From NCBI GenBank assembly GCA_963666215.2, contig CAXWPL010000001.1:32001-96000 (forward strand): DNA of 64,000 nt, given 5' to 3'. Below, one piece after another: positions 1 to 26,171 of the stretch (position 1 is the stretch's first letter; each line of letters opens with the position of its first letter). The position numbers and the translations under genes are program-made. Below the pieces are notes generated by a model. It saw only the letters and a program-made list of their open reading frames with translations, ran no database searches and had not been told where the DNA came from. The stretch is from Acidobacteriota bacterium. GTDB taxonomy: Bacteria; Acidobacteriota; UBA890; WLXD01.

Positions 1-116
1 CGCGCACGGGGGCGAGTTGTCGGTACGCAGTGAGCGCGATAGCGGCACTGTCTTCACGATTCGTTTACCCATGGAGAAGGTCGACAGCGGAGCACCCTCC
101 GCGGGAGCACAGCGCC

Positions 117-1501
117 ATGCCGCGTAGCCGACTACTCATCGTCGACGACGATCCCGAAGTTCGTTACACGCTGCGCGAGGCCCTCGTGCCGCAGGGCTTC
201 GACGTCGACGAGGCTGGCACCGCCTCCGAGGGTGTCGAGCGCGTTCGCGAGCAGGTGTATGACCTGGTTCTGCTCGACCAGCGGCTACCGGATGCCGAAG
301 GTCTCAGCGTGGTCGGCGAGCTGCGGCTACTGCAGCCTCAGCTGCTCATCGTCATGATGACGGCACACGGCACTCGGAAGACGGCGATCCAGGCCGTGGA
401 TCGGGGCGCCTATGACTTCTTTCACAAGCCCATCAAGCTGGATGAGTTGCGCGTGGTGATCACCCGAGCCCTCGAGCGCCGAGCTCTGGGGCGAGAGGTG
501 GGTCGCCTGCGCGCGCGCGTTCCTCGGAGGACACCTTCGGCAGCATCATCGGCCGCTCGGCGGCGATGCGCGAGGTCTTCGCGACGCTCGAGAAGGTGGT
601 GAGCACCAACACCACCGTGCTTGTGCTAGGCGAGAGCGGCACAGGCAAAGAGCTCGTCGCTCAGGCGGTCCACGAGCGGAGCGGCCGTGCGCAAGAGCCG
701 TTCGTCAAGCTCAACTGCGTCGCGATTCCACAAACCCTGTTGGAGAGCGAGTTATTCGGTCACGAGAAGGGGGCTTTCACGGGCGCTCATCAGCGCAGGA
801 TCGGCAAGTTCGAGCTCGCCGACCGCGGATCCATCCTGCTCGACGAGATCGGCGACATGAGTCTGGAGACGCAGGCCAAGATCTTGCGCGTGCTCCAGGA
901 GCGCGAGTTCGAACGGGTTGGGGGCGTCGAGACCGTGGCGGTGGATGTGAGGGTGATCGCGGCGACGAACCGCGACCTCGTGCGTGAAGTCGAGCGCGGA
1001 CGTTTCCGTGAAGACCTCTACTTCCGACTGAACGTAGTGACCGTTACGCTGCCCGCGCTGCGTCAGCGGCCCGAGGACATTCCGTTGCTGGCGCACCACT
1101 TCATGGCGGAGGCGGCGGAGTCGCAGGGCAAGCCTGTGGCGAAGATCTCGCCGGGCGCGATGGCGGCGCTCGCTGCCTACGACTGGCCCGGAAACGTGCG
1201 GCAACTGCGCCACGCTCTCGAACGCGCCGTCATCTGGGCGGAGGCGGATGAGATCCGCCGTAGCGATCTGCCTGGTGAGGTGGTGGCGGGCTCCCTGGTC
1301 ACGCCGCGCAGCCTGGCGGCGCGCGATTCGGGCGATCTCCCGGCCCTGATGGTGCAAATCGAGCTCGATCTCGTCACCGACGCGCTCCGCCAGGCGGGCG
1401 GCGTGCAGGCAACCGCCGCACGACGCCTCGGCATCAGCGAACGTTCGATGTGGCACAAGGTCAAGAAGCACAACATCGACGTCGAGCGCCTCAAGGCGTA
1501 A
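117..1501 (+). pseudogene. sigma54-dependent response regulator (NtrC/AtoC-type REC-AAA+-Fis HTH), split by a frameshift at ~509-521
   Basis: Frame 1 encodes a receiver domain (LLIVDDD, LLDQRLPD, MTAHG, KP). A second frame continues [19 protein letters not shown] into [36 protein letters not shown] and a C-terminal HTH. One indel joins them. Confidence 0.85.
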
Positions 1502-1633
1502 GCCGCATCACCTCAGGTGACCAACGCTTGGCCGCGCTCGACCATGGCGGTTGCCCGGACCTCTCGCGCTGTGCGGCGCGCCGGCCGCGAGGGTCATCCG
1601 CGGCCACTCTTCCCACGGGTTGTGTTGCCATCA

Positions 1634-1648
1634 CTACAAAATTTGTAG
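1634..1648. promoter_or_regulatory. candidate enhancer (UAS) palindrome for a sigma54 activator
   Basis: Perfect inverted repeat CTACAAA-A-TTTGTAG in an AT-rich intergenic patch ~230 bp upstream of the -24/-12 promoter. Confidence 0.5.
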
Positions 1649-1669
1649 ATCGACGTTCAAGTGCTTTGT

Positions 1670-1682
1670 TATCAACGATTTA
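1670..1682 (+). promoter_or_regulatory. IHF-binding site
   Basis: TATCAACGATTTA matches WATCAANNNNTTR exactly and lies between the palindrome and the sigma54 promoter. Confidence 0.6.
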
Positions 1683-1744
1683 ATCGGACTCATGGTTGCC
1701 ATTTCGAGGATGAGGCTGCACGGAACAGGGGACGGCGTCGCTGT

Positions 1745-1760
1745 GTCGGGATGTCCCGAC
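1745..1760. promoter_or_regulatory. second candidate activator-binding palindrome
   Basis: GTCGGGA-TG-TCCCGAC inverted repeat ~120 bp upstream of -24. A further spaced repeat TGTAAGT-N15-ACTTACA lies at 1799-1827. Confidence 0.45.
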
Positions 1761-1876
1761 TTGACCCGAGGGGGAGGTGAATGACTTTTCTCGATCTTTG
1801 TAAGTCATTCTGATCCAATCACTTACAGCCGATCTTGGTGTCGCCCAGACCTCGATCGAGCCGATCTGGCTGCGTC

Positions 1877-1892
1877 TGGCACGAGCGTTGCT
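1877..1892 (+). promoter_or_regulatory. sigma54 (-24/-12) promoter
   Basis: TGGCACGAGCGTTGCT matches TGGCACG-N4-TTGC(W); it lies just downstream of a bEBP gene and upstream of the HTH/pilin cluster. Confidence 0.85.
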
Positions 1893-1989
1893 CTTCTCTT
1901 CGGCCGTGACGGGCTTGCGTTCGTCACGCTGCCGTACCCACGGCGACCCGCCTCCCGCGGCAAGACAGAGAAGAAGGGGAGCAATCACC

Positions 1990-2208
1990 GTGCAGAAGCT
2001 CTATACCACCGAGACGCTCGCTGAGCTGTTGCAGGTCTCGCCTCGCACCATTCGGCGCGAGCGCAAAGAAGGCCGGCTACCGTTCGTGCGCGTTCGAGGA
2101 CAGATCCGTTATCGCGAGAGCGATGTACGTGCCTATCTCGAGCGCAACGCCAGTATGTCGATGGACGAAGACGTCCTTGGTTCAGCGCTGAGTTGGCGCG
2201 AGGGTTGA
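1990..2208 (+). CDS. small Xis/BldC-like helix-turn-helix DNA-binding protein (HTH_17-type) #1
   Basis: GTG start after GAAGGGGA; LYTTETLAELLQVSPRTIRRERKEGRLPFVRVRGQIRYRESDVRAYL. Confidence 0.85.
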   Translation: MQKLYTTETLAELLQVSPRTIRRERKEGRLPFVRVRGQIRYRESDVRAYLERNASMSMDEDVLGSALSWREG

Positions 2209-2323
2209 TCTCGAACGGCACGGCTCGCGCCGTATCGATCGCGACCTCTCCAGGGACGGACCGGTCGCAGCAACTCGAGCTCAGTCACGAGCGCACCGCG
2301 AAGCAGCAATAGGGAGGCACACC

Positions 2324-2542
2324 ATGACGGGTCTTTACACCACAGAAAGTCTTGCCGACTACCTGCAGGTATCGCCGCACACGGTTCGGCGTGAGCGCGA
2401 GGCGGGACGGTTGCCCTTCATCCGTATCCGCGACCTCGTGAGGTATCGCCCCGAGGATGTCGAGGCGTACCTGTCACGTCAGTCACACGATCGCTACGTT
2501 GCACCGCTGAACGGTCACGGCAGGATCGCGGCTTTCGGCTAG
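2324..2542 (+). CDS. small Xis/BldC-like HTH protein #2
   Basis: SD AGGGAGG; LYTTESLADYLQVSPHTVRREREAGRLPFIRIRDLVRYRPEDVEAYL, a clear paralog of #1. Confidence 0.88.
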   Translation: MTGLYTTESLADYLQVSPHTVRREREAGRLPFIRIRDLVRYRPEDVEAYLSRQSHDRYVAPLNGHGRIAAFG

Positions 2543-2608
2543 AGCAGCTTCGTACGCAACCCGGGATCCTGCTGCCACCGCATGTGGCGAGCGCTCCTGG
2601 TCGAGTCT

Positions 2609-3235
2609 ATGGAGACCCAATTGAGCCAGGCCAAAGGCTTCACTTTGATGGAGGTGGCCGTCATGCTCGCGGTGTTATCCGTTCTCGCCGGCCTTACGGT
2701 CGGAATGGTCGGCAACGTTGTCGAGGATGGGCAGGTGATTCGCGCCCGCGAAGAAGTCGGGCAGATCGGCCGCGCGGTGACCAGTTTCTATGCCGATACT
2801 GGTCAGTTCCCGCAAACTCTCGACGGCAGCCAGTCGACTTTGTCTGCGCAGCTGATCGGCTTGCTGGCCAGTAGCGCGGCGATGCCCGACGTTACCGACG
2901 GCACAGCGTTGTGGGTCCAAGCTCGCGCCGATCGGATGGACGCGCATCTTGCAGCCAACTACCGCGGCTACACGCCGCGCAGCGAGCTGCTGTCGCACGG
3001 CTGGAACGGGCCCTACTTGGCTCCCGAGCTCGGCGACGATCCCTGGGGGCGGGCCTATCTGATCAACGTGTTCTACCGCGACGCTCGCGATGCTCTCGTC
3101 GAGGCCGACGGTACGCCGCTCGGAGCGGTGTACGCGATCTCGGCCGGACCGAACGGAGTCATTGAGACGCCTTATTACCAGCGCCGCGACAGCGCCACTA
3201 TCTTCGGTGACGACATCGGATTCCGACTCCAATGA
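2609..3235 (+). CDS. GspG-like prepilin/pseudopilin #1
   Basis: Class III signal KG|FTLMEV plus hydrophobic helix; WNGPYL, DPWGRAY, SAGPNG and DDIG motifs. Start could be TTG 2621. Confidence 0.85.
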   Translation: METQLSQAKGFTLMEVAVMLAVLSVLAGLTVGMVGNVVEDGQVIRAREEVGQIGRAVTSFYADTGQFPQTLDGSQSTLSAQLIGLLASSAAMPDVTDGTALWVQARADRMDAHLAANYRGYTPRSELLSHGWNGPYLAPELGDDPWGRAYLINVFYRDARDALVEADGTPLGAVYAISAGPNGVIETPYYQRRDSATIFGDDIGFRLQ

Positions 3236-4002
3236 GGACAACAACCAAGAACCCAATCGCCGGCTTTACGCTTGTTGAGGTCGCCATCATCCTGCTCGTG
3301 ATCGCCATTCTGTCGGCGATCGTGACTCCGGTGCTCAGCAGCACCATCGCCGACGCCAGACTTTCGGCGGCGAAATCGGAGATGAGCACGATCGTGCGAG
3401 CCTTCCGCGAGCTGCTTGCGGACCTCGGCTGCCCGTTCGTGCCACGGCGCTCCACCACCGGCAACGTTTACCGCGACCGCGCCAAGGGTGTTGCCGCTGA
3501 CATTCCACCCGTTGCGCCCCCTATGGGTGGGGACTTCGATCTGCGGCCCACCGCGCCGTTGGGGTGCGAGGCTAGCGCGGTGTGTGGTGGCGAGCCGGTC
3601 GCGATTCTCGTGACCTCAGGCGACATTCCCTCGGTAGGGCCAGAGGGCGACTGGAGTTGGGCCGATCCCGTCGATCGGGATGAGGTCGATTTTCTCGAGT
3701 ACTACCTGGTGAGCAACACGCCGGGGGGTAAGGAAGAGCTCGCGTTTCCGACCGCGGCGGAGTGTGGCTCGCGTGAGTTCGGAGGCGCCCACAACTGGCG
3801 CGGCGCGTACACGACACCGGGCACGGGCGATCCTTGGGGGAACCGATACATGATCAATTCGCTCTTTCTGCCGGGCTTCGGTACCGACGACGTGGTGATC
3901 CTGTCGGCCGGGCCCGATCAGGAGATCGACACCGAGTTCGCCGAGGACGGTCTTGTTGCCGGCGGCGACGACCTGGTGCTGTTGATCGCGCCGGGACGCT
4001 AG
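3232..4002 (+). CDS. GspG-like prepilin/pseudopilin #2
   Basis: AG|FTLVEV; WRGAY, DPWGNRY, SAGPDQ, GDDL; ATGA overlap with the previous gene; four Cys in the variable region. Confidence 0.85.
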   Translation: MRTTTKNPIAGFTLVEVAIILLVIAILSAIVTPVLSSTIADARLSAAKSEMSTIVRAFRELLADLGCPFVPRRSTTGNVYRDRAKGVAADIPPVAPPMGGDFDLRPTAPLGCEASAVCGGEPVAILVTSGDIPSVGPEGDWSWADPVDRDEVDFLEYYLVSNTPGGKEELAFPTAAECGSREFGGAHNWRGAYTTPGTGDPWGNRYMINSLFLPGFGTDDVVILSAGPDQEIDTEFAEDGLVAGGDDLVLLIAPGR

Positions 4003-4084
4003 AAGGCGACAGCTGTAGGAATTCTTCGCAAGAAGCGCCACGAGGGTGGCGCAGAGAGACAGGGATCCTGGGGAGGCAAAACGA

Positions 4085-4924
4085 ATGCGACATCAACAAC
4101 AACAACTACGCGGTACACGGCAGCAGGGCTTCACGCTCGTCGAAGTCACGATCATCGTGACGACGCTGGCGATTCTCTCGGCCATCATGCTGCCCCAGAT
4201 GGGCGTCTACCTGCGCGAAGCGCGGTTCGCACGAGTGCGCGAGGACGTTGGCGCGATCGGCGTCGCCATCATGCAGCTTCTCAAGGACACTGGAGAGAGC
4301 GCGCTGTACAAGGAGCCCCAGGGCAACTGGCGCTCGCCTCAGCGAATCGGCTCCAACGATGGCGGCGAGCCCATCGGGCTGCTCGTAGGCGACGGTGACA
4401 CACCCGACGGCAACGACTACAGCTGGCGCGCGTCCTTGGACGACCATGTGCCGGCCGCATCGACCGACTTCGGCAACGTATGGATTCCCAGCGGCTTGGT
4501 CGACACGTTCGCCAATCACTTGATCCACAACAACCCCGGAGGAGGCGACAACTGGAATGGCGTAGGGTCGCCTTGGGCGCGCTATCGCACGCCAGCCGAG
4601 ATGACTTCCGGCGATCACAGCTCGGGCCAACCCAACGGGCTGCAGTTCGACCCGTCCGCTGGCGAGGGGTTCAACTCGGACTTCGCCTGGCGCGGTCCCT
4701 ACCTCGACGCGGTTCGCCCCGATCCTTGGGGGAATCGCTATTCCGCCAACGTGCTCTGGTTCACGATTCCCCAGGGCGGCAACTCCTCGGGTTTCAACCG
4801 CCCGATCGTGGTCATCTCGGCCGGGCCCGACGAGGAGATCGACACCGACTTCTCTTCATCCGGCGGCTTCGTGGTCGGCGACGACGATATTGCGTACCCA
4901 GTGGCCTTCGGCTCATTGCGCTAG
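4085..4924 (+). CDS. GspG-like prepilin/pseudopilin #3
   Basis: SD GGAGG; QG|FTLVEV; WRGPYL, DPWGNRY, SAGPDE, GDDDI. Confidence 0.87.
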   Translation: MRHQQQQLRGTRQQGFTLVEVTIIVTTLAILSAIMLPQMGVYLREARFARVREDVGAIGVAIMQLLKDTGESALYKEPQGNWRSPQRIGSNDGGEPIGLLVGDGDTPDGNDYSWRASLDDHVPAASTDFGNVWIPSGLVDTFANHLIHNNPGGGDNWNGVGSPWARYRTPAEMTSGDHSSGQPNGLQFDPSAGEGFNSDFAWRGPYLDAVRPDPWGNRYSANVLWFTIPQGGNSSGFNRPIVVISAGPDEEIDTDFSSSGGFVVGDDDIAYPVAFGSLR

Positions 4925-4972
4925 CCCAGCGATCCTCCCCTGCCAAGCGATCGTGATGCCGAGAGACGGACG

Positions 4973-5803
4973 ATGATGAGATCGAGATCAGTAGACCGCC
5001 AACATAGCCTGCAAGGCGCGAGCGCCGCAGCTGCCGCCGGTGCCGTCGACCGGGAGCGTGGCTTCACGCTGGTCGAGGTGACGATCATCCTGACAGTGCT
5101 GACGGTGCTCGGTCTGACGCTTCTTCCCGGCATCGGTAACTACCTGCGCGAAGCCCGACTGGCTCGTGCCCGCGGTGATCTCAAGGCGATCTCGAGCGCT
5201 GTGCATGTTTTTCTGGCCGACACCGGCGAGCAGGCGTTCCGCTGCCGCGGCAACGGCAGCCGCGATTCCACCGGCTGGGGCTCGCACAACCCCTCGAGCC
5301 CAGATCCCGACCAGTTGGTGTGGACGCTGGTGAGCGATGGAGACCTGCCCGACGAGCCCAAGAGCGGCAGCGTTGACGGTGCCTGGCGCTGGCGCCGCAC
5401 GGTCGATGGTCATCAGGTCGACACGATTTCCAACCACCTCGTTCAGAACACACCAGGCAACGATCCCGGGACCCATTACCGCACCGCCAAGCATCTCGAC
5501 AACGCGCCGCCCGAGCAGTTCGCGTTCCAGCAAATGTCGGGCTTCAACGCGCGCTTCGCGTGGCGCGGACCCTACCTGTCGGGCCCAGTACGCTCCGACC
5601 CCTGGGGCAATCGTTATGCGATCAACGTGCGATTCCTCGACCCAGTCGCCGACAGCGTTGGCGGGCCAGAGAGCGGCTACACGGAGGATGTCTTCGTGCT
5701 CTCGGCAGGCCCAGACGAGGAAATTGATACTCTTTATGCTGCCGATGGCGTCGTACCTGGTGACGACGATCTGATTATGGTGATCTCTGGGGACAGCCGA
5801 TGA
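4973..5803 (+). CDS. GspG-like prepilin/pseudopilin #4
   Basis: RG|FTLVEV; WRGPYL, DPWGNRY, SAGPDE, GDDDL; closest paralog of #3. Confidence 0.87.
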   Translation: MMRSRSVDRQHSLQGASAAAAAGAVDRERGFTLVEVTIILTVLTVLGLTLLPGIGNYLREARLARARGDLKAISSAVHVFLADTGEQAFRCRGNGSRDSTGWGSHNPSSPDPDQLVWTLVSDGDLPDEPKSGSVDGAWRWRRTVDGHQVDTISNHLVQNTPGNDPGTHYRTAKHLDNAPPEQFAFQQMSGFNARFAWRGPYLSGPVRSDPWGNRYAINVRFLDPVADSVGGPESGYTEDVFVLSAGPDEEIDTLYAADGVVPGDDDLIMVISGDSR

Positions 5804-6516
5804 CTGAAGTCGAGGGTTCGGGTAGCCGGTGCCGCCGGTGTTGGCCGGCGCCATCGGGCTCGCACCGGAAGGCTCGCGGCGAAGCCGGCTTCACGCTGCT
5901 CGAGATCACGATCATTCTGGCCGTAGTCGCCATTCTCGGGCTCATCATGGCGCCCGCCGTGCTGAATTTGATGAATTCGTCGCGGGTTGCCCGCGCGCAA
6001 ACCGACGTGCAAGCGATCGCCGATTCGGTTCGCGACTTTTACGTCGACAACGGGTTCTTCCCTCAGTACGCCGATGCCGCTCGCACCCGCCCGATTCGTT
6101 TGCTGGTTACGGCGGGAGCCGCTCCCGAATCCGCCTCGGCGACGATCGACGGCTGGCAGCTGACTGATCCTTCGCAGATCGATCGTGTTGGCAACCAGCT
6201 GGCCAACAACCGCCCTTCGTTCGGTGCCATCGGCTATCCGCTCAAGCGAGCCAATGGTGAATCGGGCTGGAACGGCCCGTATTTGCATGGCGAGATTGGC
6301 CCCGATCCGTGGGGCAACCGATACGTGATCAATGTCGAGTTCCTATCGGTGAATCTCGGCGGCTACGAGGTCAACGGTGTGCAGCCCAAGCGCGCCGTGT
6401 GGGTGTTGTCGGCCGGGCCCGACGGTGTGATCGACACGATCTATCCGACAGTGTCTGAACAGTCGATCGGGTTGGCCGCGGCGAGCCCATTGGACATCAC
6501 CGCTCGCATTCAGTAG
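5800..6516 (+). CDS. GspG-like prepilin/pseudopilin #5
   Basis: AG|FTLLEI; FYVDNGFFP, WNGPYL, DPWGNRY, SAGPDG; ATGA overlap. Confidence 0.87.
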   Translation: MTEVEGSGSRCRRCWPAPSGSHRKARGEAGFTLLEITIILAVVAILGLIMAPAVLNLMNSSRVARAQTDVQAIADSVRDFYVDNGFFPQYADAARTRPIRLLVTAGAAPESASATIDGWQLTDPSQIDRVGNQLANNRPSFGAIGYPLKRANGESGWNGPYLHGEIGPDPWGNRYVINVEFLSVNLGGYEVNGVQPKRAVWVLSAGPDGVIDTIYPTVSEQSIGLAAASPLDITARIQ

Positions 6517-6903
6517 CTCAGCTCGCACCGCTCGCTGATCTCCCAGCGAGCGCGGCTGACGAGCTCCTCGTCCTCGACTTCTCGAGGAAGAGATCCACGA
6601 CGACTAACGGAAGACCCATGTGCGCCGAGCGGGCCGGGGTCGTCGGTCGTCCGGTCATTTGCTCTCGACCGCAGGGGCCGCGTACGCACCATAGGAGTGT
6701 GACCCCGCGAAATCAGGCCCGCCGTTGTCGGTTGCTGTCGATCGTCCAGCGCCCAGGCAACGGCCCGGGTGTCAGCGGTGGCCACAGCGGATAGGAGGAA
6801 TTGCGGTTACTCAGGACGCCCGGTAGGGTACCCGGATGGTTGACGTCGAGCCTTGCAGGTAGGGCTTGGCCCGGTTGAGATACGATTGAGCAGGCGGCGT
6901 TCG

Positions 6904-7122
6904 ATGGCGAAAGACACGCTTTTTACGACCTATAGCTTGGCCCAGTACCTACAGGTCAGCACACGGACCGTGCAGCGAGAGGTCGAGCGCGGTCGCATGC
7001 CGTTCGTCCTCGTGAGCGGTCGCCGTAGATACCGTAAGGCCGACGTCGAGGCCTATCTGCAGAGCCGGCTGCAACGGTCGCGCTTCCGTCTTATCCAGGG
7101 CGGCAGAAGTAACTTCGGCTAG
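6904..7122 (+). CDS. small Xis/BldC-like HTH protein #3
   Basis: LFTTYSLAQYLQVSTRTVQREVERGRMPFVLVSGRRRYRKADVEAYL, paralog of #1 and #2. Confidence 0.85.
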   Translation: MAKDTLFTTYSLAQYLQVSTRTVQREVERGRMPFVLVSGRRRYRKADVEAYLQSRLQRSRFRLIQGGRSNFG

Positions 7123-7329
7123 AGCGCCAGCGGAACCGGTCGTCCGCAAGCCCGTTGAGGGTGTTGCCTGCGGCGGCCAGGATCGGCCGCGTGGTCGCCA
7201 AACCTAGCAACGAGGCCGATAGCTGGACACACGGGGTCAACGCCTCCCGTCGGTAGTTGTCGCTGCGTCCCCAGCCGTGACATCGTCGCGCTCGATAACT
7301 CGCCCCCCATCTTCCCCCCGGCGGTCTCC

Positions 7330-7605
7330 GTGCCCAAGCAGCGGCTCGACACTCTCGACACCCTCGCGGAGCGCTTCGGCCTACCGTGGCGGACGATCGT
7401 TCGCGAGGTATTGCGTACGCGCCTGCCGTACGTAAGCGTCGCTGGGAGCTGGCGGTTCCGCGAGCGCGATGTGGAGGTCTGGCTACAGCGCGTCGGCGAC
7501 CTTCCTCGTCTCGAGCTGCTCACGGGAGGTAGAACAGCGAGGGCACCGGGTGAACGCTCCCGTCGCCATGGCGCAGACCAGGAAGCTCGTGGTCGGCACG
7601 ACTAG
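7330..7605 (+). CDS. small Xis/BldC-like HTH protein #4 (divergent)
   Basis: TLDTLAERFGLPWRTIVREVLRTRLPYVSVAGSWRFRERDVEVWL fits the same wing pattern LP(F/Y)V.V.G..R(F/Y)R..DV. Confidence 0.75.
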   Translation: MPKQRLDTLDTLAERFGLPWRTIVREVLRTRLPYVSVAGSWRFRERDVEVWLQRVGDLPRLELLTGGRTARAPGERSRRHGADQEARGRHD

Positions 7606-7693
7606 AGACCTGCCGCGGCGCCAATCGAGGTCCTGTCCTGGATTCTGTGGCCAAGCGCGGACAAACGTGGCCAGCGCCGCTTGAGAGACGGTA

Positions 7694-7720
7694 GGAACGC
7701 GTCTAGGCTCTCCCCTCGTT
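7694..7720 (+). promoter_or_regulatory. possible ECF-sigma promoter upstream of HTH #5
   Basis: GGAAC-N18-CGTT about 40 bp before the start codon; short motif, could be chance. Confidence 0.3.
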
Positions 7721-7761
7721 TGGATGAGCTTCACTAAAGAGCTGGGAAGAGGCGACGACTC

Positions 7762-7977
7762 TTGAGCGAGAGTCTTCGAGTTGAGACGGTCGCGAGCTTG
7801 ACTGAGCGGGTCGGTATGAGCCGCGAAACCATCGTTCGCGAGGTCCGCGAGGGGAGTCTGCCGTACGTCAACGTCGGTGGCCATTGGCGATTCCGCGATT
7901 GCGACGTGGCCTACTGGAAGCGCAATCAGCGGCGAGCCGGTTTTCGCGTCATCGCAGGCGCCGCCGAAACCGCCTAG
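7762..7977 (+). CDS. small Xis/BldC-like HTH protein #5
   Basis: ETVASLTERVGMSRETIVREVREGSLPYVNVGGHWRFRDCDVAYW, paralog of #4. Confidence 0.78.
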   Translation: MSESLRVETVASLTERVGMSRETIVREVREGSLPYVNVGGHWRFRDCDVAYWKRNQRRAGFRVIAGAAETA

Positions 7978-7978
7978 G

Positions 7979-8957
7979 TGTGTTTTCTAAGTAGGTTGTT
8001 CACATCGGGGCTCACTTCTGAGATCAATGGGGTTGTTCAAAAGACTCCACGACCTCAGAAGGAGCGCCCGATGCAGCTGCATGGTAACGCCCGCACGACG
8101 CCGTATATACGCCGAGAGATGGTCCGCCGAGTCCGGGAGCGGGCGGAGCCCGTGACGGAAACGGCGGCGGCGCTCGGCGTGTCGGCTCGAACGGTTTACA
8201 AGTGGCTGGATAGATACGAGCGAGAAGGTGAGGCCGGGCTGCTCGATCGATCAAGCCGGCCGACGTGCTGTCCGCACGCAACAAGCGCTGGAGTTGTGAG
8301 GCAGATCGACAAGCTACGTCGGCGGCGACTGACGGCCTGGCAGATCAGCCGAAGGTTGGCTGTGCCGCGCTCGACCGTCTCGGCGTGGCTGAAGCGGCTC
8401 GGACTCGCCAAGCTTGATGCGCTCGAGCCCAAGCCCGAGATCGTTCGCTACGAGTACGAGCACCCCGGTGACCTACTGCACCTGGATACGAAGAAACTGG
8501 CCCGTATCCGGCGACCTGGACACCGCATCCACGGCGACCGCTCCAAGCGGGCCTACGGCGTCGGCTGGGAGAACGCCCACGTCGCTATCGACGATCACTC
8601 TCGGGTGGCGTACGTCGAAGTGCTGCCCGCCGAAGACCAACACACCTGCACAGCGTTCCTGCAGCGAGCCGTCGAGCACTTCGCTTCGATGGGAGTAGCG
8701 GTGCGCCGAGTGATGACAGACAACGGGCCTGGCTACGTCTCGAAGCGCTTCAATCGCCTATGCCATCAACTCGAGATCCGGCACATTTACACCCGGCCCT
8801 ACACCCCCAGAACCAACGGCAAAGCCGAACGCTTCATCCGCACACTCAAGGAGCAGTGGGCCTACGGCACCTGCTACCAGACCTCAGCTCGACGTACTCG
8901 AGCTCTACGGCCCTGGCTCAACCACTACAATCGTCACCGTCCCCACGCCGGCATCGG
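7979..8957 (+). mobile_element. IS481-family element, copy 1, lacking its last 64 bp including the right inverted repeat
   Basis: Starts TGTGTTTTCTAAGTAGGTTGTTCAC after CCTAGG. Matches 23224-24202 with one difference seen (8511 G vs 23756 C), then diverges. Confidence 0.93.
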
Positions 8958-9285
8958 GGAGTTCGATCGCACCCTCACTCTCGACCCGGGTCAGATCGAT
9001 GCCTACGTCAATAAGGGCCTGATCCTGATGCGCGGTGGCGAGTACTCCAAAGCCGTGGGCGTGTTCCAAGCGGCGATCGCGAGGGACCCGAATCATGCCC
9101 TGGCACACTACAACCTCGGTCTCGCCTACGAAGAGAGCGAGCATTTTGACCAGGCGATCGATGTCTACGCCATGTTCATGCGTCTCGGTGGTGCCGAGCA
9201 CGGGGAGCTGGCTACATACGTTGGCCGCCGTATCGAATGGCTCGAAACACTGCCCGGTAGCCGCTACGGTGGCTCGCAACGCTGA
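8071..9285 (+). CDS. IS481 transposase fused in frame to a C-terminal TPR-repeat fragment
   Basis: SD AAGGAG; LHLDTKK, IDDHSR, TDNG, TNGKAER (DDE); after HAGIG it continues EFDRTLTLDP..AYVNKG..DPNHALAHYNLG (TPRs). Confidence 0.85.
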   Translation: MQLHGNARTTPYIRREMVRRVRERAEPVTETAAALGVSARTVYKWLDRYEREGEAGLLDRSSRPTCCPHATSAGVVRQIDKLRRRRLTAWQISRRLAVPRSTVSAWLKRLGLAKLDALEPKPEIVRYEYEHPGDLLHLDTKKLARIRRPGHRIHGDRSKRAYGVGWENAHVAIDDHSRVAYVEVLPAEDQHTCTAFLQRAVEHFASMGVAVRRVMTDNGPGYVSKRFNRLCHQLEIRHIYTRPYTPRTNGKAERFIRTLKEQWAYGTCYQTSARRTRALRPWLNHYNRHRPHAGIGEFDRTLTLDPGQIDAYVNKGLILMRGGEYSKAVGVFQAAIARDPNHALAHYNLGLAYEESEHFDQAIDVYAMFMRLGGAEHGELATYVGRRIEWLETLPGSRYGGSQR

Positions 9286-9907
9286 GGCCCAACCGGCGGC
9301 CAAGCGATGCGATGCTGTTGGCTTGTGCTTGGCGATCGCCCTTGTCGTGATGGCGCCGGGAGCCGCGAGCGCACAGGCTCGCCCGTGCGTGTATCACGAC
9401 ACAGACGGCCGCATCGTGATCACCGATCGACTCTCAGATCCCCGCTGCGCCCACCTGCGCCCGCGCCCCGCAGCGGCATCTCGAGCTACGCCAAGACGGA
9501 TCTCGCTGGCGACGGCCGAGCTGGTTGATCTCACACACCGCACCGCGCTCGAGTTCGGCGTGGACCACCGGCTCATCGAATCGGTCGTCGAGATGGAATC
9601 TGCCTACAACCCACGGGCGGTCTCGCGAACCGGCGCCATGGGGCTCATGCAGTTGATGCCCGACCTGGCGCGGCAGTACGGCGTGCGGAACGCGTTCGAT
9701 GCGCGTGAGAATCTTCGCGCCGGCATTCTGCACATGAGAGCGCTGCTGCGAAAGTATGAGTCGGATGTTCGGCTCACGCTCGCGGCCTACAACGCCGGGG
9801 AGGGGAGCGTGAAGCGATACGGTGGAGTGTCCCCGTTCCGCGAGACGCTCGACTACGTTGCTCGAGTGCTGGCGCGATATCGTCAGCGAGTCAGAGCCGA
9901 GACGTAG
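9269..9907 (+). CDS. lytic transglycosylase (SLT domain), exported
   Basis: Signal-like segment ending ASAQ; ESAYNPRAVSRTGAMGLMQLMP, LAAYNAGEG, ETLDYV; start uncertain. Confidence 0.88.
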   Translation: MARNAEAQPAAKRCDAVGLCLAIALVVMAPGAASAQARPCVYHDTDGRIVITDRLSDPRCAHLRPRPAAASRATPRRISLATAELVDLTHRTALEFGVDHRLIESVVEMESAYNPRAVSRTGAMGLMQLMPDLARQYGVRNAFDARENLRAGILHMRALLRKYESDVRLTLAAYNAGEGSVKRYGGVSPFRETLDYVARVLARYRQRVRAET

Positions 9908-9921
9908 CAACGGCTTCCTCG

Positions 9922-9957
9922 GAAGACTCGGGACATCGCTAGAAGACTTGAGACATC
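9922..9957 (+). repeat. tandem direct repeat with 20-bp period
   Basis: GAAGACTCGGGACATC (9922-9937) and GAAGACTTGAGACATC (9942-9957), 14/16 identical. Confidence 0.7.
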
Positions 9958-10038
9958 AGTGCGCGAGGCCGCCGACGTGTTTCCGGCAGGCGAGAGTGCG
10001 AGGATGCAGCCAACTCTTCTCGAGACTCGGAGGCTGCA

Positions 10039-10752
10039 GTGGGTGGGTTTCTCGCCGAGCGCCGGCGCCATTCGGAGCTGATGGACGCACCGGACATCGC
10101 TGCCAGTGAACACCGACGCGCCCTCGCCGGATTGGAGCGCATCAACCGGCTCTCCGCTGCCGTCCGACCGATTTGGAACCAGATCGCCCCCCTCATCGTG
10201 CGCACTGGCGGCGCTCTCCGAGTTCTCGACGTTGCGTGCGGAGGCGGTGAAGTCGCCGTCGGGCTGCAGAAACGCGCCCTCCGCGCCGGGCTCGACATCG
10301 AGGTTTTCGGTCTGGATATCAGCTCGTTGGCGGTCCAGGTCGCTCGCGAGAGGGCGTCGGCCGAAGGACTGGTGATGCGGTTTGCCGTTGGCGACGCTGT
10401 TGCCACACCGATCGACATCCACGAGCACTACGATGTCGTGATGAGCAGCCTGTTCCTGCACCACCTCGACGAACACGACGCCCTCCGCCTGCTGCGCCAT
10501 TCGGCGGCCGCGGCAACGCGTCGCGTGCTCGTCGTCGACCTGCGCCGCTCTCTGCGGGGCTACGTCCTGGCCGTGCTCGGCACGCGCGCTCTGAGCCGCT
10601 CGCCGGTTGTGCACTACGATGGCCCCGCCTCGGTACGCGCCGCATTCCATATCGAAGAAGCATGCCGGCTGGCCGAGCGTGCCGGCCTGCAGAACGTGCG
10701 AGCGGAGGCTCGTTGGCCGTTCCGATTTCTTCTCTCGGCGGATCCTGCATGA
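10039..10752 (+). CDS. SAM-dependent methyltransferase (type III PKS-associated)
   Basis: RRRHSELMD N-terminal motif, VLDVACGGG, SSLFLHHL, DLRRS, DGPASVRAAF. Confidence 0.88.
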   Translation: MGGFLAERRRHSELMDAPDIAASEHRRALAGLERINRLSAAVRPIWNQIAPLIVRTGGALRVLDVACGGGEVAVGLQKRALRAGLDIEVFGLDISSLAVQVARERASAEGLVMRFAVGDAVATPIDIHEHYDVVMSSLFLHHLDEHDALRLLRHSAAAATRRVLVVDLRRSLRGYVLAVLGTRALSRSPVVHYDGPASVRAAFHIEEACRLAERAGLQNVRAEARWPFRFLLSADPA

Positions 10753-12131
10753 ACTCCTTCGCTGTCACGGAAGATCGCCGCGAGCTCGGGTGCGGCGTAT
10801 TCGACGTCGTTGTGGTTGGCGCCGGACCGGCGGGCTCGATGGCGGCGCTGGAATGCGCTCGCGCAGGCATGTCGGTGCTCCTGGTTGATCGCAGTCGGCA
10901 TCCCCGAGCCAAGGTATGCGGCTGCTGTCTCACTCCCGGCTCGCTCGACGCCCTTACGGCCGCGCTCGGATGCGCCGAAGTGGATGCATTGGGTGGCCTA
11001 CCGCTGCGTCGCGTGCGGCTCGCGGCTTGGGGCCGGCGGCTCGAACTGCCGCTGGCGCGGGCCATGGTGTTGTCGCGCGCGCGTCTCGACAGCGTGCTGC
11101 TCGAGCGAGCCCGAGACGCCGGGGCACGGATTCTGTTCCCTGCCACGGCGAGCCCCGGTGCAGTGACCGCCGAATGGCGCGAGGTTCGCCTGCGTCACGA
11201 GGGTTCATCGATGCGGGTTCGCGGCCGTGTTGTCCTGGCTGCCGACGGGCTGAGCGGAGGCTTTCTGCGCGCCTGCCGAAAGCAGGCACTCGCGCAGGTT
11301 GGCGGTGCGTCGCAGGCCGTTGCGAAGGGTGAATCCGCCGCCGAACGTCCGGCGTTGGGACACGTCGGCGCCGCCTTGATACTGCCTTCTACGCAGGCAA
11401 ATCCTGATTACGCTCCCGGCGTTGTCTACATGGCCGCGGGCTCGGGGGGATACGTGGGCGTAGTTCGCCTCGAGGACGGTCGCCTCAACATCGCCGCTTC
11501 GCTATCGAGCGACGCTCTGCGCCCCGAGGCCCAAGTCGGGGAGCGGAGGCGGCCGAAACTCGAAGGCGTGGTGGCGGGAATTCTCGCCGCGGCGGGGTTG
11601 CCGCCGATTGGCTTCGACCGCGTTGGAGCCCATGCCGACGGCCGCGCCAATTCCCGGCCGGCCGCGGTCGTCGAATCGATGACCGCCGAGCAGCCGTCGA
11701 CCGACGAGGCGGGACCACCGCTGCGACACTGGATGGCGACCCCAAGGTTGCGGACACGCCCAGGGCACCTGATGGCGCCGCGCGTGCTGGCCATTGGCGA
11801 CGCTGCCGGATTCTGGGAGCCATTCACCGGCGAGGGAATCGCGTGGGCGCTCAACTCAGGCCGCGAAGCGGCGGCCGCCGTTCCGGGGCTGATTCCACAG
11901 TGGCGAGCTGGCGAGGTCGAGGCCTGGGAGCAGGGGTTCAGGGCCCGGTTGCGGCGACGTCAGCGACACAGTCAGCGTGTCGCGGCTCTGGCTGGTCGAC
12001 CACGGCTCGCCGCTGCAGCCATGACACTGTTGAGTGCGTGGCCACACTCGCTCCATTGGTTGTTGCCCGGTCAGCAACTGACTGGACGTCGTGCATCGGG
12101 AAGCGCGCGGTCCGAGCGGGTGAACGCATGA
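10749..12131 (+). CDS. FAD-dependent oxidoreductase (geranylgeranyl reductase/aromatic hydroxylase-like)
   Basis: VVVGAGPAGS, PRAKVCG, AADG, IGDAAGFWEPFTGEGI; ATGA coupling on both sides. Confidence 0.88.
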   Translation: MNSFAVTEDRRELGCGVFDVVVVGAGPAGSMAALECARAGMSVLLVDRSRHPRAKVCGCCLTPGSLDALTAALGCAEVDALGGLPLRRVRLAAWGRRLELPLARAMVLSRARLDSVLLERARDAGARILFPATASPGAVTAEWREVRLRHEGSSMRVRGRVVLAADGLSGGFLRACRKQALAQVGGASQAVAKGESAAERPALGHVGAALILPSTQANPDYAPGVVYMAAGSGGYVGVVRLEDGRLNIAASLSSDALRPEAQVGERRRPKLEGVVAGILAAAGLPPIGFDRVGAHADGRANSRPAAVVESMTAEQPSTDEAGPPLRHWMATPRLRTRPGHLMAPRVLAIGDAAGFWEPFTGEGIAWALNSGREAAAAVPGLIPQWRAGEVEAWEQGFRARLRRRQRHSQRVAALAGRPRLAAAAMTLLSAWPHSLHWLLPGQQLTGRRASGSARSERVNA

Positions 12132-13357
12132 GCTTGCACGTTGTCGGAATCGGGACGGCGGTTCCCGAACATACGATCGCGCAATCCGACGCCGCCAGCG
12201 TCAGCCGTGCCCTGCTTCCCCCCAATGCATCCCCGCGACACGGGTCACTGCTCGAAGCCTTGTATCGCCGCTCGGGCGTCGAGCGTCGGGGGTCGGTTCT
12301 GCTGGCCGAGACCGATGGAGACTGCGGGGCAAGGGCAGAGACCACGACCGACTCGGGCGCACAGGGCTTCTACAAGCCGGCGACCTCCGAAACGGACGGT
12401 GGTCCGGGGACGGCGTCGCGGATGGCGCACTATGAGCGGTCGGCGATTGCTCTTCTCGACACGGCCGCTCGACGAGCGATCCTCGAGGCGGGCGTCGATG
12501 CGGCTGCCTTCACTCACCTGATTACCGTTTCCTGCACCGGATTCTACGCGCCCGGTCTGGACGCGGGCCTCATCAACCGGCTCTCGCTGCCGCGCGATGT
12601 TGCCCGCGCGCACATCGGGTTCATGGGTTGTCACGGCCTGTTCAACGCCATCGGCGTGGCGAAGTCGATCGTCGAGGCGGAGCCCTCTGCGACGGTTCTT
12701 GTGGCCGCGGTGGAGCTCTGCAGCCTTCACTTCAGCTACGGCTGGGAGTCGGAGAAGATCGTCGCGAACTCACTCTTCGCCGACGGCGCGGCGGCTTTGA
12801 TTTGCACCGCCGCGGGCTCGGAGCTGCCGCAGTCGACACCGTTGCTGGCGTTCGACGCCACGGCCTCCTACCTGCTGCCCGATTCCGAGGATGCCATGAC
12901 GTGGAGGATCGGTGATCACGGCTTCGAGATGACTCTCGCCGCCAGCGTGCCCGGGCTGGTTGCGCGTCACGTGGGCCCATGGCTCGATGCTTGGCTCGGG
13001 GAGGAAGGACTGTGCCGCGACCAGGTTCGTACGTGGGCGGTTCATCCGGGGGGACCGCGCATTCTCACCGCGTTCGAGCGCTCGGCGTCTCTGCGCAACG
13101 GGGCGCTGGCGGTTTCGCGCCTGGTGTTGTCGCGCTGCGGCAACATGTCGTCGGTGACGGTGGCGTTCATCCTCGAGGAGCTGTCACGCTCAGGTGCCGA
13201 GTCGCCGGGTGTCGCCGTTGGGTTCGGTCCGGGAATGGTGGCCGAGGGGCTGCTCTTCAGAACGCTCGATGGAGGCAAACACGAGGACCGACGGCAGGCG
13301 CCTTCGCCGGGCGAGTCGGACGGCCCTCGTACGGGCCCGACATTGATCCCCGGCTAG
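12128..13357 (+). CDS. type III polyketide synthase
   Basis: Cys-His-Asn triad motifs FMGCHG, VHPGG, GNMSS; also ELCSLH, LFADGAAA, GFGPG. Confidence 0.93.
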   Translation: MSLHVVGIGTAVPEHTIAQSDAASVSRALLPPNASPRHGSLLEALYRRSGVERRGSVLLAETDGDCGARAETTTDSGAQGFYKPATSETDGGPGTASRMAHYERSAIALLDTAARRAILEAGVDAAAFTHLITVSCTGFYAPGLDAGLINRLSLPRDVARAHIGFMGCHGLFNAIGVAKSIVEAEPSATVLVAAVELCSLHFSYGWESEKIVANSLFADGAAALICTAAGSELPQSTPLLAFDATASYLLPDSEDAMTWRIGDHGFEMTLAASVPGLVARHVGPWLDAWLGEEGLCRDQVRTWAVHPGGPRILTAFERSASLRNGALAVSRLVLSRCGNMSSVTVAFILEELSRSGAESPGVAVGFGPGMVAEGLLFRTLDGGKHEDRRQAPSPGESDGPRTGPTLIPG

Positions 13358-23174: not shown

Positions 23175-23223
23175 CCAGCCTGGCCCCAAAAGGCTAATCG
23201 AAGTTCACGCGGGTCCGACTAGT

Positions 23224-24266
23224 TGTGTTTTCTAAGTAGGTTGTTCACATCGGGGCTCACTTCTGAGATCAATGGGGTTGTTCAAAAGACTCCACGACCT
23301 CAGAAGGAGCGCCCGATGCAGCTGCATGGTAACGCCCGCACGACGCCGTATATACGCCGAGAGATGGTCCGCCGAGTCCGGGAGCGGGCGGAGCCCGTGA
23401 CGGAAACGGCGGCGGCGCTCGGCGTGTCGGCTCGAACGGTTTACAAGTGGCTGGATAGATACGAGCGAGAAGGTGAGGCCGGGCTGCTCGATCGATCAAG
23501 CCGGCCGACGTGCTGTCCGCACGCAACAAGCGCTGGAGTTGTGAGGCAGATCGACAAGCTACGTCGGCGGCGACTGACGGCCTGGCAGATCAGCCGAAGG
23601 TTGGCTGTGCCGCGCTCGACCGTCTCGGCGTGGCTGAAGCGGCTCGGACTCGCCAAGCTTGATGCGCTCGAGCCCAAGCCCGAGATCGTTCGCTACGAGT
23701 ACGAGCACCCCGGTGACCTACTGCACCTGGATACGAAGAAACTGGCCCGTATCCGCCGACCTGGACACCGCATCCACGGCGACCGCTCCAAGCGGGCCTA
23801 CGGCGTCGGCTGGGAGAACGCCCACGTCGCTATCGACGATCACTCTCGGGTGGCGTACGTCGAAGTGCTGCCCGCCGAAGACCAACACACCTGCACAGCG
23901 TTCCTGCAGCGAGCCGTCGAGCACTTCGCTTCGATGGGAGTAGCGGTGCGCCGAGTGATGACAGACAACGGGCCTGGCTACGTCTCGAAGCGCTTCAATC
24001 GCCTATGCCATCAACTCGAGATCCGGCACATTTACACCCGGCCCTACACCCCCAGAACCAACGGCAAAGCCGAACGCTTCATCCGCACACTCAAGGAGCA
24101 GTGGGCCTACGGCACCTGCTACCAGACCTCAGCTCGACGTACTCGAGCTCTACGGCCCTGGCTCAACCACTACAATCGTCACCGTCCCCACGCCGGCATC
24201 GGCATGACACCGCCGATCGCTCGGCTCTCAGGGGTGAGTTCGTGAACAACCTACCTAGAACTCACA
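23224..24266 (+). mobile_element. IS481-family element, copy 2 (complete, 1043 bp)
   Basis: TGT...ACA ends; 25-bp terminal inverted repeats with 3 mismatches; flanks ACTAGT and ACTAGG (NCTAGN-type target). Confidence 0.95.
23316..24245 (+). CDS. IS481-family transposase
   Basis: N-terminal HTH, DDE motifs, YNRHRPHAGIGMTPP end; stop codon lies inside the right inverted repeat. Confidence 0.95.
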   Translation: MQLHGNARTTPYIRREMVRRVRERAEPVTETAAALGVSARTVYKWLDRYEREGEAGLLDRSSRPTCCPHATSAGVVRQIDKLRRRRLTAWQISRRLAVPRSTVSAWLKRLGLAKLDALEPKPEIVRYEYEHPGDLLHLDTKKLARIRRPGHRIHGDRSKRAYGVGWENAHVAIDDHSRVAYVEVLPAEDQHTCTAFLQRAVEHFASMGVAVRRVMTDNGPGYVSKRFNRLCHQLEIRHIYTRPYTPRTNGKAERFIRTLKEQWAYGTCYQTSARRTRALRPWLNHYNRHRPHAGIGMTPPIARLSGVSS

Positions 24267-24376
24267 ACTAGGCGGGCCCGTTTCGTGTTTGGCGACCCCT
24301 TCGGCGTCGCGGTCGTCGCACAACGCACCGTGTCGCGACTGCGGAGCATCGGGTCGGCGATACAATGCGCGGCGCG

Positions 24377-26155: not shown

Positions 26156-26171
26156 TGGCACGCAGCTTGCT
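26156..26171 (+). promoter_or_regulatory. sigma54 (-24/-12) promoter
   Basis: TGGCACGCAGCTTGCT, a consensus match 270 bp downstream of the bEBP gene. Confidence 0.8.

Follow-up and report, generated by a model that had tools for sequence, protein, structure and literature searches.

Descriptions of type IV filament systems usually feature two-component regulation, control by sigma54 or sigma70, and one major pilin, and in Pseudomonas, Myxococcus and Geobacter pilA is controlled by PilS-PilR and sigma54. A different kind of regulator is BldC of Streptomyces, a small MerR-like protein reported to form head-to-tail multimers on direct repeats and to distort the DNA strongly (PMC5859096). Features recalling both were found together in a 64,000-nucleotide stretch of an Acidobacteriota genome (hereafter the window; C1:32001-96000, C1 being contig CAXWPL010000001.1 of the 4.65-Mb, 5-contig, 91.7% complete assembly G000). 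Here, at window positions 1990-7977 on the plus strand, two helix-turn-helix (HTH) genes of the HTH_17 family are followed by five GspG-like prepilin genes and three further HTH_17 genes. This region is likely to be the regulatory and pilin-encoding head of a lineage-specific type IV filament locus resembling the type II secretion system (T2SS) and the mannose-sensitive haemagglutinin (MSHA) pilus, which persists in this genome as a relic. As with PilS-PilR, a kinase and an NtrC-type activator are encoded directly upstream of a -24/-12 promoter that would drive the pilin genes; unlike PilS-PilR, two HTH_17 genes lie between the promoter and the first pilin gene and three past the fifth, and the activator is a pseudogene here.

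Positions 1-12000 of the window were translated in six frames and the ten candidate proteins were scanned with Pfam and NCBIfam. All ten co-oriented genes were found where a first-pass annotation of this DNA, made by reading the sequence, had put them:

1990-2208, plus strand: HTH1, 72 amino acids, HTH_17 (PF12728) at 58.9 bits, with a conserved GTG start
2324-2542, plus strand: HTH2, 72 amino acids, HTH_17 at 48.3 bits, sister paralogue of HTH1
2582-3235 (likely start 2612), plus strand: pilin p1, a GspG-like prepilin, orthogroup support 99%
3232-4002, plus strand: pilin p2, its start overlapping the p1 stop
4046-4924 (likely start 4085), plus strand: pilin p3, with prepilin motif
4973-5803, plus strand: pilin p4, retained in every reduced locus examined
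5800-6516, plus strand: pilin p5, its ATG overlapping the p4 stop
6904-7122 (open reading frame (ORF) open from 6853), plus strand: HTH3, HTH_17 at 42.2 bits
7330-7605, plus strand: HTH4, the weakest HTH_17 match (24.6 bits), on a long branch in this genome
7762-7977, plus strand: HTH5, HTH_17 at 32.1 bits, full length, on the longest branch of the HTH tree

The HTH_17 cut-off is 27 bits. Four of the five HTH proteins exceed it and HTH4 lies marginally under it, yet HTH4 is a clear paralogue in the HTH alignment, and the five can be regarded as paralogues, as had been proposed. A gap of 340-390 nucleotides (nt) before HTH3 contains partly conserved blocks. GC content is flat over the pilin/HTH region, and an Rfam scan of window 1-12000 matched no RNA family.

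The prepilin cleavage motif GFTL(V/M/L)E (cut after the G) of class III signal peptides is present in all five pilins, and the C-terminal motifs DPWG..Y and SAGP are invariant among them. All five match the GspG model TIGR01710 at 34-50 bits, which is below its cut-off of 88.85. The 21-bit cut-off of T2SSG (PF08334) is reached by p1, p4 and p5, while p2 scores 18.8 bits and p3 gives no match; N_methyl is at cut-off in three of the five. An AlphaFold2 model of p5 (predicted local distance difference test (pLDDT) 86.6; 101 aligned sequences) contains a helix at residues 33-84. The ten best Foldseek matches of this model were all T2SS major pseudopilins, as were the best eight rows of a second aligner (Z 5.5-8.6; the first five 8.1-8.6). 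The GspG of enterohaemorrhagic Escherichia coli, PulG and EpsG align with Z 8.1-8.6 and a root-mean-square deviation of 2.4-4.2 over 99-109 residues at ~20% identity, a match which has large insertions and which, with Z near 8, is moderately strong only; type IV pilins score lower (Z 2-5). As modelled, p5 has the GspG globular fold.

A profile of the five pilins matched strongly and over the full length in each of the 10 other family genomes (five genera, that of the present genome included), and in one (G050) of 50 further genomes of the order and phylum. The corresponding five-HTH profile found five copies, at 69-118 bits, in or beside the pilin arrays of the family; the set of G005 runs off its contig, and a single additional copy lies elsewhere in each of G006 and G008. 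Of 401 phylum genomes, those of the family alone gave scores in this range, the other 18 genomes with a match having single 50-55-bit matches in longer ORFs. With both profiles mapped, the order is everywhere HTH-HTH, pilins, HTH-HTH-HTH, then 1-8 more pilins. The core of two HTH, five pilin and three HTH genes is complete in G001, G002, G006, G007, G010 and metagenome locus L100; that of G004 spans two contigs, that of G003 has an insertion in p2, and G008 and G009 have fewer pilins. Profile and neighbourhood comparison thus bear out a conserved HTH-pilin linkage, suspected from the window alone, in 10 of 10 relatives.

In trees, the five HTH and the five pilin orthogroups follow position, seeming exceptions arising from the way genes on partial contigs were numbered. 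The downstream pilins, which vary in number, group apart in a clade of their own. Conservation within the locus is highest for HTH1, at 85-88% identity between genera as against 42-68% for the pilins. Two proposals of the first-pass annotation fail on these data. The pilins had been taken as alternative major subunits, but p1-p5 are five old and distinct orthogroups with overlapping or closely spaced starts and stops behind one promoter. Covariation of HTH and pilin copy number had also been suggested; five HTHs persist with two or three pilins between them in G009, L135, L139 and L141, and the 5:5 count is, as had been allowed for, a coincidence, since the five HTHs are kept while the pilin number varies. 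The present genome also has a solitary sixth pilin paralogue (C1:690816-691565, minus strand, 249 amino acids) at the base of the downstream pilin clade; it adjoins a 770-residue protein without a Pfam match and has an IS256-like transposase near it.

The machinery comparison is based on six relatives with long stretches, in which some orthologues are clipped at the stretch ends. Upstream, from mreB to the activator, and downstream of window position 9000, the present genome is collinear with its relatives at the protein level. Between HTH5 and the genes for a tetratricopeptide repeat (TPR) protein and a lytic transglycosylase (SLT), the relatives have an extra stretch, whose computed length is 17 kb in G002, 20 kb in G006, 24 kb in both G003 and G010, and 28.9 kb in G001. 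The G001 stretch contains more pilins, unrelated inserts (reverse transcriptase, PadR plus permease, ABC transporter) and then a machinery block:

T2SSE ATPase, 445 amino acids: Pfam T2SSE 397 bits; best NCBIfam match GspE, 503 bits
T2SSF platform protein, 401 amino acids: Pfam T2SSF 156 bits; best NCBIfam match GspF, 271 bits
pilin-like protein, 290 amino acids
PilM-like protein, 556 amino acids: weak PilM_2 match
GspM-like protein, 216 amino acids
secretin, 583 amino acids: Pfam Secretin 134 bits; best NCBIfam match MshL, 203 bits
AAA_22+SPOR ATPase, 495 amino acids: best NCBIfam match TIGR03015 (MshM/GspA-like), 267 bits
TPR protein, 455 amino acids

The GspE, GspF, MshL and TIGR03015 matches are all under the equivalog cut-offs. 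Downstream of the core in the six relatives, orthologues at 41-79% identity were found for the ATPase in six (partial in G003), the platform protein in five (the gene was not seen in the G008 stretch), the PilM-like protein and the secretin in six each, and the MshM-like and TPR proteins in five each. The reverse transcriptase of G001 (RVT_1, 316 amino acids; L062 18222-19172, minus strand) lies between the sixth pilin and the later ones.

The locus shares with the T2SS and the MSHA-type pilus the class III signal peptide and GspG fold of its subunits and, in the relatives, a GspE-like ATPase, a GspF-like platform, PilM/GspL- and GspM-like proteins, a secretin closest to MshL, an MshM/GspA-like ATPase and a TPR protein. 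It differs from them in that the relatives have 6-14 or more GspG-like paralogues of 200-290 amino acids rather than GspG plus GspH-K, in that no machinery component attains the equivalog cut-off of the curated systems, and in that the machine is absent from the present genome; unlike the T2SS, no GspC was recognised, and the MshM-like protein carries a SPOR domain. The system is probably a divergent T2SS/MSH, "generic" in the scheme of Denise et al. 2019 (PMC6668835).

The first-pass annotation had correctly seen that the window holds no T2SS or type IV pilus ATPase, secretin or platform gene. Its conclusion, a stand-alone module, does not hold: in six relatives the core leads into T2SS/MSHA-like machinery, and its absence here is traced to an insertion sequence (IS) and a deletion, whose traces are as follows:

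7974-8957, plus strand: IS481-family element (Pfam LZ_Tnp_IS481, rve, rve_3), left end intact, ~68 nt missing at the right
7978-9285, plus strand: transposase ORF, reading on into the TPR remnant, with a TPR Pfam match on residues 341-398 of the fused ORF
8958-9285, plus strand: remnant of the TPR gene (last ~100 codons), right edge of the deletion
9300-9907 (start approximate), plus strand: lytic transglycosylase (SLT), the next gene after TPR in relatives

When the G001 TPR protein was searched by tblastn, its residues 352-448 aligned to C1:40959-41249 (window 8959-9249); synteny here skips from HTH5 to TPR residue 352. The element is ~1.05 kb long, and 39 further copies (967 nt or longer, 97% identity or more) are spread with some fragments over all five contigs; a copy at 23219-24270 also lies in the window. 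Four full copies have imperfect terminal inverted repeats (TGTG..TTCAC) and CTAG flanks, in keeping with IS481, for which CTAG is the preferred target. At the array, the left end sits in a CTAG formed by the last codons of HTH5 (..GCC TAG), so HTH5 is full length; the right end is missing, which is why the transposase ORF continues to 9285 and takes in TPR repeats. Contigs assembled from runs of different studies agree with both junctions: in X2, X6 and X10 they cross the end of HTH5 and cover 19-28 nt of the IS, and on the other side they include its final 17-30 nt and continue into the TPR remnant, short of the 31 nt threshold for a formal bridge. Run-contig joints with sides of 20-29 nt were set aside as other organisms or paralogues. 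Two runs containing sequence of the locus are labelled as seawater metagenomes, and the family is apparently marine and uncultured; none of the runs listed with such sequence is an RNA run.

A search of the genome's own contigs gave as best ATPase match (42% identity) the PilB of its type IVa pilus (T4aP); the PilM-like, 216-residue and 290-residue pilin-like proteins had no match there, and of the TPR protein only residues 352-448 were found. The simplest history is that an IS481-family element inserted at the CTAG of the HTH5 stop codon and that a later deletion, starting within the IS and ending in the TPR gene, took out the additional pilins together with the entire machine. In the T4aP cluster, a copy of the same IS splits a second PilB/MshE-type ATPase gene (MshEN + T2SSE; C1:197838-200653, L181 13823-16653). 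Past the SLT gene, window 10039-13357 carries a methyltransferase, a 489-residue ORF (10662-12131) and an adjoining type III polyketide synthase (chalcone/stilbene synthase domains), a block which among the relatives' stretches searched is present only in G003. Pairs of a PadR gene with a duplicated permease, which call Acidobacteriota to mind, are numerous in the genome.

The features upstream of the array are as follows:

1-127, plus strand: 3' end of a sensor histidine kinase gene (PAS-HisKA-HATPase_c, Pfam; 496 amino acids), which starts 1363 nt before the window
117-1501, plus strand: NtrC/PilR-type sigma54 activator (REC + Sigma54_activat + HTH_8), split into frames 117-~520 and 521-1501
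1623-1648, unstranded: dyad TGT(T/A)G-N6-CTACA-N5-TGTAG, ~235 nt upstream of the -24 element, with CTACAAAATTTGTAG at 1634-1648
1670-1682, unstranded: TATCAACGATTTA, resembling the integration host factor (IHF) consensus as read from the sequence; a partly conserved block in an alignment of 11 sequences
1799-1827, unstranded: inverted repeat TGTAAGTCATT/AATCACTTACA between the dyad and the promoter, with partly conserved TAAG..CTTA columns
1877-1892, plus strand: sigma54 promoter TGGCACGAGCGTTGCT (-24 GG, -12 GC), with the exact consensus TGGCACGAGCGTTGC at 1877-1891

The kinase gene is syntenic in five relatives at 59-66% identity. Just upstream of it in relatives, on the opposite strand, lies a small syntenic HTH_17 gene, here at C1:28972-29163 (minus strand), ~3 kb before the window; with 88-92% identity across genera it is more conserved than its neighbours. 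Near 505-521 the activator gene is frameshifted by 1 nt: the intact G001 orthologue, aligned by tblastn, follows frame +3 to ~446 and frame +2 from 521, and the X2 and X6 contigs (depth 12-15), which match the window, confirm the shift. In the X10 and X12 contigs (depth 2-2.5) an extra G behind 521 restores a continuous activator ORF, and X12 has a CAG to TAG change at position 390, in a contig of depth 2. The variants at 390 and 521 may be independent inactivations, as read from contigs of depth 2-2.5.

In the upstream alignment of 11 sequences the CTACA and TGTAG columns of the dyad are invariant, and a third half-site lies further upstream; the dyad is a likely upstream activating sequence (UAS) to which the activator would bind. 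IHF may bind at TATCAACGATTTA, given the likeness to its consensus. The sigma54 motif with at most one mismatch occurs five times in the window against 4.46 expected, which alone is not above chance. The exact form TGGCAC-N5-TTGCT occurs once per locus in all 11 stretches that cover the DNA before HTH1, at a distance of 76-107 nt from that gene and with a variable spacer sequence; the -24 and -12 elements thus keep their 4-nt-exact spacing and are conserved among relatives. The predicted transcription start is near 1902-1903, and the GGGAG-GTG start of HTH1 is conserved in the upstream 400-nt alignment. Because these blocks are conserved in the alignment, the UAS/IHF/-24-12 arrangement read at first pass can be upheld as conserved sequence, with predicted binding. 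Two rpoN genes are present in this genome. Exact sigma54 sites also stand directly upstream of homologous pilins in the unrelated metagenome loci L109 and L167.

Scanning of intergenic DNA in nine genomes revealed no further sigma54 promoters inside the array; no consensus sigma70 promoter was found in it, and terminator-like sites numbered four against 4.2 expected. A block resembling TTGCG-N17-TAGGGT before HTH3 is partly conserved and is degenerate here, and is not claimed as a promoter. The window also contains a second NtrC-type activator gene (24365-25885), which has 77-79% identity to its own orthologues and ~41-43% to the pilin-locus activator of relatives; the only other exact sigma54 consensus in the window, TGGCACGCAGCTTGC at 26156-26170, follows it.

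The HTH1 protein was modelled with AlphaFold2 (pLDDT 78; 53 aligned sequences) as helices at residues 7-14, 18-27 and 43-56, with a two-strand wing before the last. Its best Foldseek matches were the BldC-DNA complexes 6AMA and 6AMK (38-39% identity; target-normalised template-modelling score 0.72-0.78), with E-values of 1.4e-3 to 1.2e-2 that are weak, for so small a protein; Xis or recombination directionality factor (RDF) and MerR-type N-terminal domains came next. The predicted fold of HTH1 therefore agrees with the Xis/BldC-like character assigned at first pass. An ESM Atlas search with HTH1 returned generic HTH_17 clusters only. Like BldC, HTH1 has ~70 residues, a helix-helix-wing-helix layout and no effector or dimerisation/coiled-coil domain. 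Proteins of the BldC type form oligomers on DNA only. Unlike BldC, a single global regulator, the HTHs are five divergent paralogues inside one pilus locus; their best score on the NCBIfam BldC model NF033787 is 30.3 bits (HTH1) against a cut-off of 77, and no convincing direct-repeat operator was found for them at the locus. The winged-helix fold and matches to the excisionase domain TIGR01764 are shared with Xis/RDF excisionases (Pukovnik Xis, RdfS, GIsul2 excisionase): HTH1 scores 43.5, HTH2 35.8, HTH3 38.2 and HTH5 34.8 bits, above the cut-off of 28.8, and HTH4 21.5 bits, under it. For the HTHs, unlike those proteins, neither a partner integrase nor an att site nor a mobile-element setting was found. 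HTH3-5 and their orthologues have, after the last helix, a C-terminal (R/K)-Φ-x-Φ-Φ motif, often followed by G or GG (FRLIQGG, LELLTGG, FRVIAGA), which HTH1 and HTH2 lack.

The pilin family is itself large, with 202 representatives at E 1e-30 or better. For a survey of their distribution 80 metagenome loci were fetched. Six of these have family-type HTHs, one of the six duplicating a genome already counted, and one short contig has a different HTH_17 gene (54 bits) before a pilin. Three HTH-bearing loci retain only p4 and p5 between the HTH blocks, with a p1 fragment in one, and G008 and G009 are similar to them. Homologous pilin arrays without HTH genes, which the first-pass annotation had named as counting against its model, do occur outside the family: G050 lacks the HTHs, and so do 14 metagenome loci with three or more pilin matches and a length of 6 kb or more. 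In several of these, either the same secretin/MshM-like/TPR genes or genes for the ATPase and the platform adjoin the array. A search of genome contigs with p3 gave two loci from a Lentisphaerae metagenome-assembled genome, single pilins at 35-36% identity with no HTH in their 2-kb flanks. Tandem GspG-like arrays with a machine appear from these comparisons to be widespread and older, and the HTH quintet to be an addition of this family, because arrays outside it have machine genes but no HTHs.

How the present genome would use the array is open to other explanations. A self-contained filament module, in which alternative major pilins borrow the T4aP machinery encoded at C1:184-214 kb and each has one cognate HTH, would account for the ten intact ORFs and for the prepilin peptidase, PilB, PilC and secretin elsewhere in the genome, and sharing of prepilin peptidases between systems is known (Denise et al. 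2019, PMC6668835). We consider it unlikely, since six relatives have these genes in one locus with its own machine, p1-p5 overlap or lie close together behind a single promoter, five HTHs without covariation accompany two or three pilins, and this genome's activator is inactivated. The module looks like an orphan because an IS bloom and a deletion made it so, and it does not represent a new stand-alone design. Excisionase-type directionality factors or mobile-element remnants, possibly rearranging the pilin genes, are suggested by the TIGR01764 scores of four of the five HTHs and by the rve-core transposase that abuts HTH5. That idea is very improbable: the HTHs are positional orthologues, placed syntenically between housekeeping genes across five genera, there is no tyrosine or serine recombinase among the annotated genes of the window or of the G001 locus, the transposase belongs to an IS with ~40 scattered copies, and the GC content does not change over the region. 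Between 1500 and 8000 no inverted repeat of at least 18 nt was found, and the direct repeats are paralogous coding segments only (60-90% identity); a shufflon or gene conversion was rejected on the same grounds. The first-pass statement that there is no integrase or att site thus stands for tyrosine and serine recombinases and for att-like repeats but has to be limited to these, because the rve transposase of the IS481 element adjoins HTH5. Its companion view, that the HTHs are not debris of a locally integrated element, is sustained by their syntenic positions.

AlpA is an antiterminator, and the HTHs could likewise act as antiterminators, as RNA-polymerase-associated factors, or as architectural DNA benders replacing or joining IHF at the sigma54 promoter. 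In keeping with this are the single promoter for a long operon, the 150-390 nt gaps before HTH3, HTH4 and HTH5, the array's lack of consensus terminators and sigma70 promoters, the conserved AT-rich inverted repeats between UAS and promoter, and the strong DNA distortion reported for BldC (PMC5859096). Phage_AlpA is, however, absent among the Pfam matches of the HTHs, and such a role seems to us unlikely.

Returning to the interpretation as a relic of a larger filament locus, several observations weigh against it. The ten HTH and pilin ORFs are all intact on six-frame reading. The extra G of X10, which comes without the stop codon, means that some cells may keep a working activator. The T4aP cluster at C1:184-214 kb, with an intact 555-residue PilB, PilC/two platform genes, a secretin and the genome's only prepilin peptidase, could in principle process and assemble p1-p5. 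A translocation of the machine to the unassembled part is not strictly excluded in an assembly 91.7% complete. A repeated operator motif was found nowhere at the loci outside the sigma54 promoter region: strict matches to TAAG-N14-20-CTTA occur in that region only (four of nine genomes), plus one elsewhere, in G001, which lies far from the array. In favour of decay, 19 nonsynonymous and 8 synonymous polymorphisms over the ten genes are near the expectation without constraint, in a count which comes mostly from contigs of depth 2-4 with possible errors and has no housekeeping control; together with the activator variants they hint at relaxed constraint. Because the machine is deleted and the activator frameshifted, the ten intact genes are probably silent or heading to decay.

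In the family at large, the conserved cis elements and the PilS-PilR analogy suggest that the kinase and the NtrC/PilR-type activator would fire the one sigma54 promoter, driving HTH1-HTH2-p1 to p5. Beyond p5 would come HTH3-5, variable pilin paralogues, the ATPase, the platform, the PilM/GspM-like proteins, the secretin, the MshM/GspA-like ATPase and the TPR protein. The pilins would be processed by a single prepilin peptidase and polymerised, in the relatives, by the locus-encoded machine, which would build from the GspG-fold subunits a filament, either spanning the periplasm or at the surface. The HTHs, as presumptive cytoplasmic DNA-binding regulators, may relay or modulate the expression of the other genes at the locus, since they would be the first products of the sigma54 transcript. 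We give an even chance to their being transcription regulators of this locus with BldC-like DNA binding, as the comparison with known proteins would have it. A more specific proposal, tentative and on the doubtful side, is that the five form ordered, mixed head-to-tail oligomers on the locus DNA, HTH1-2 coming from the sigma54 transcript and HTH3-5 from the following genes, and so choose which downstream pilins and machinery are expressed. If true, BldC-type regulators would here for the first time work as several paralogues together, and for the first time be linked to the biogenesis of a pilus or secretion system.

No paper connecting pilins with HTH_17 or excisionase-family proteins turned up in a literature search. 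Five small BldC-like paralogues fixed inside a type IV filament locus, an embedded set of regulators, are the new element here. Because they are kept where pilins are lost, and because HTH1 is the most conserved gene of the locus, the HTHs are marked as a functionally important, undescribed layer of pilus/secretion control in this family.

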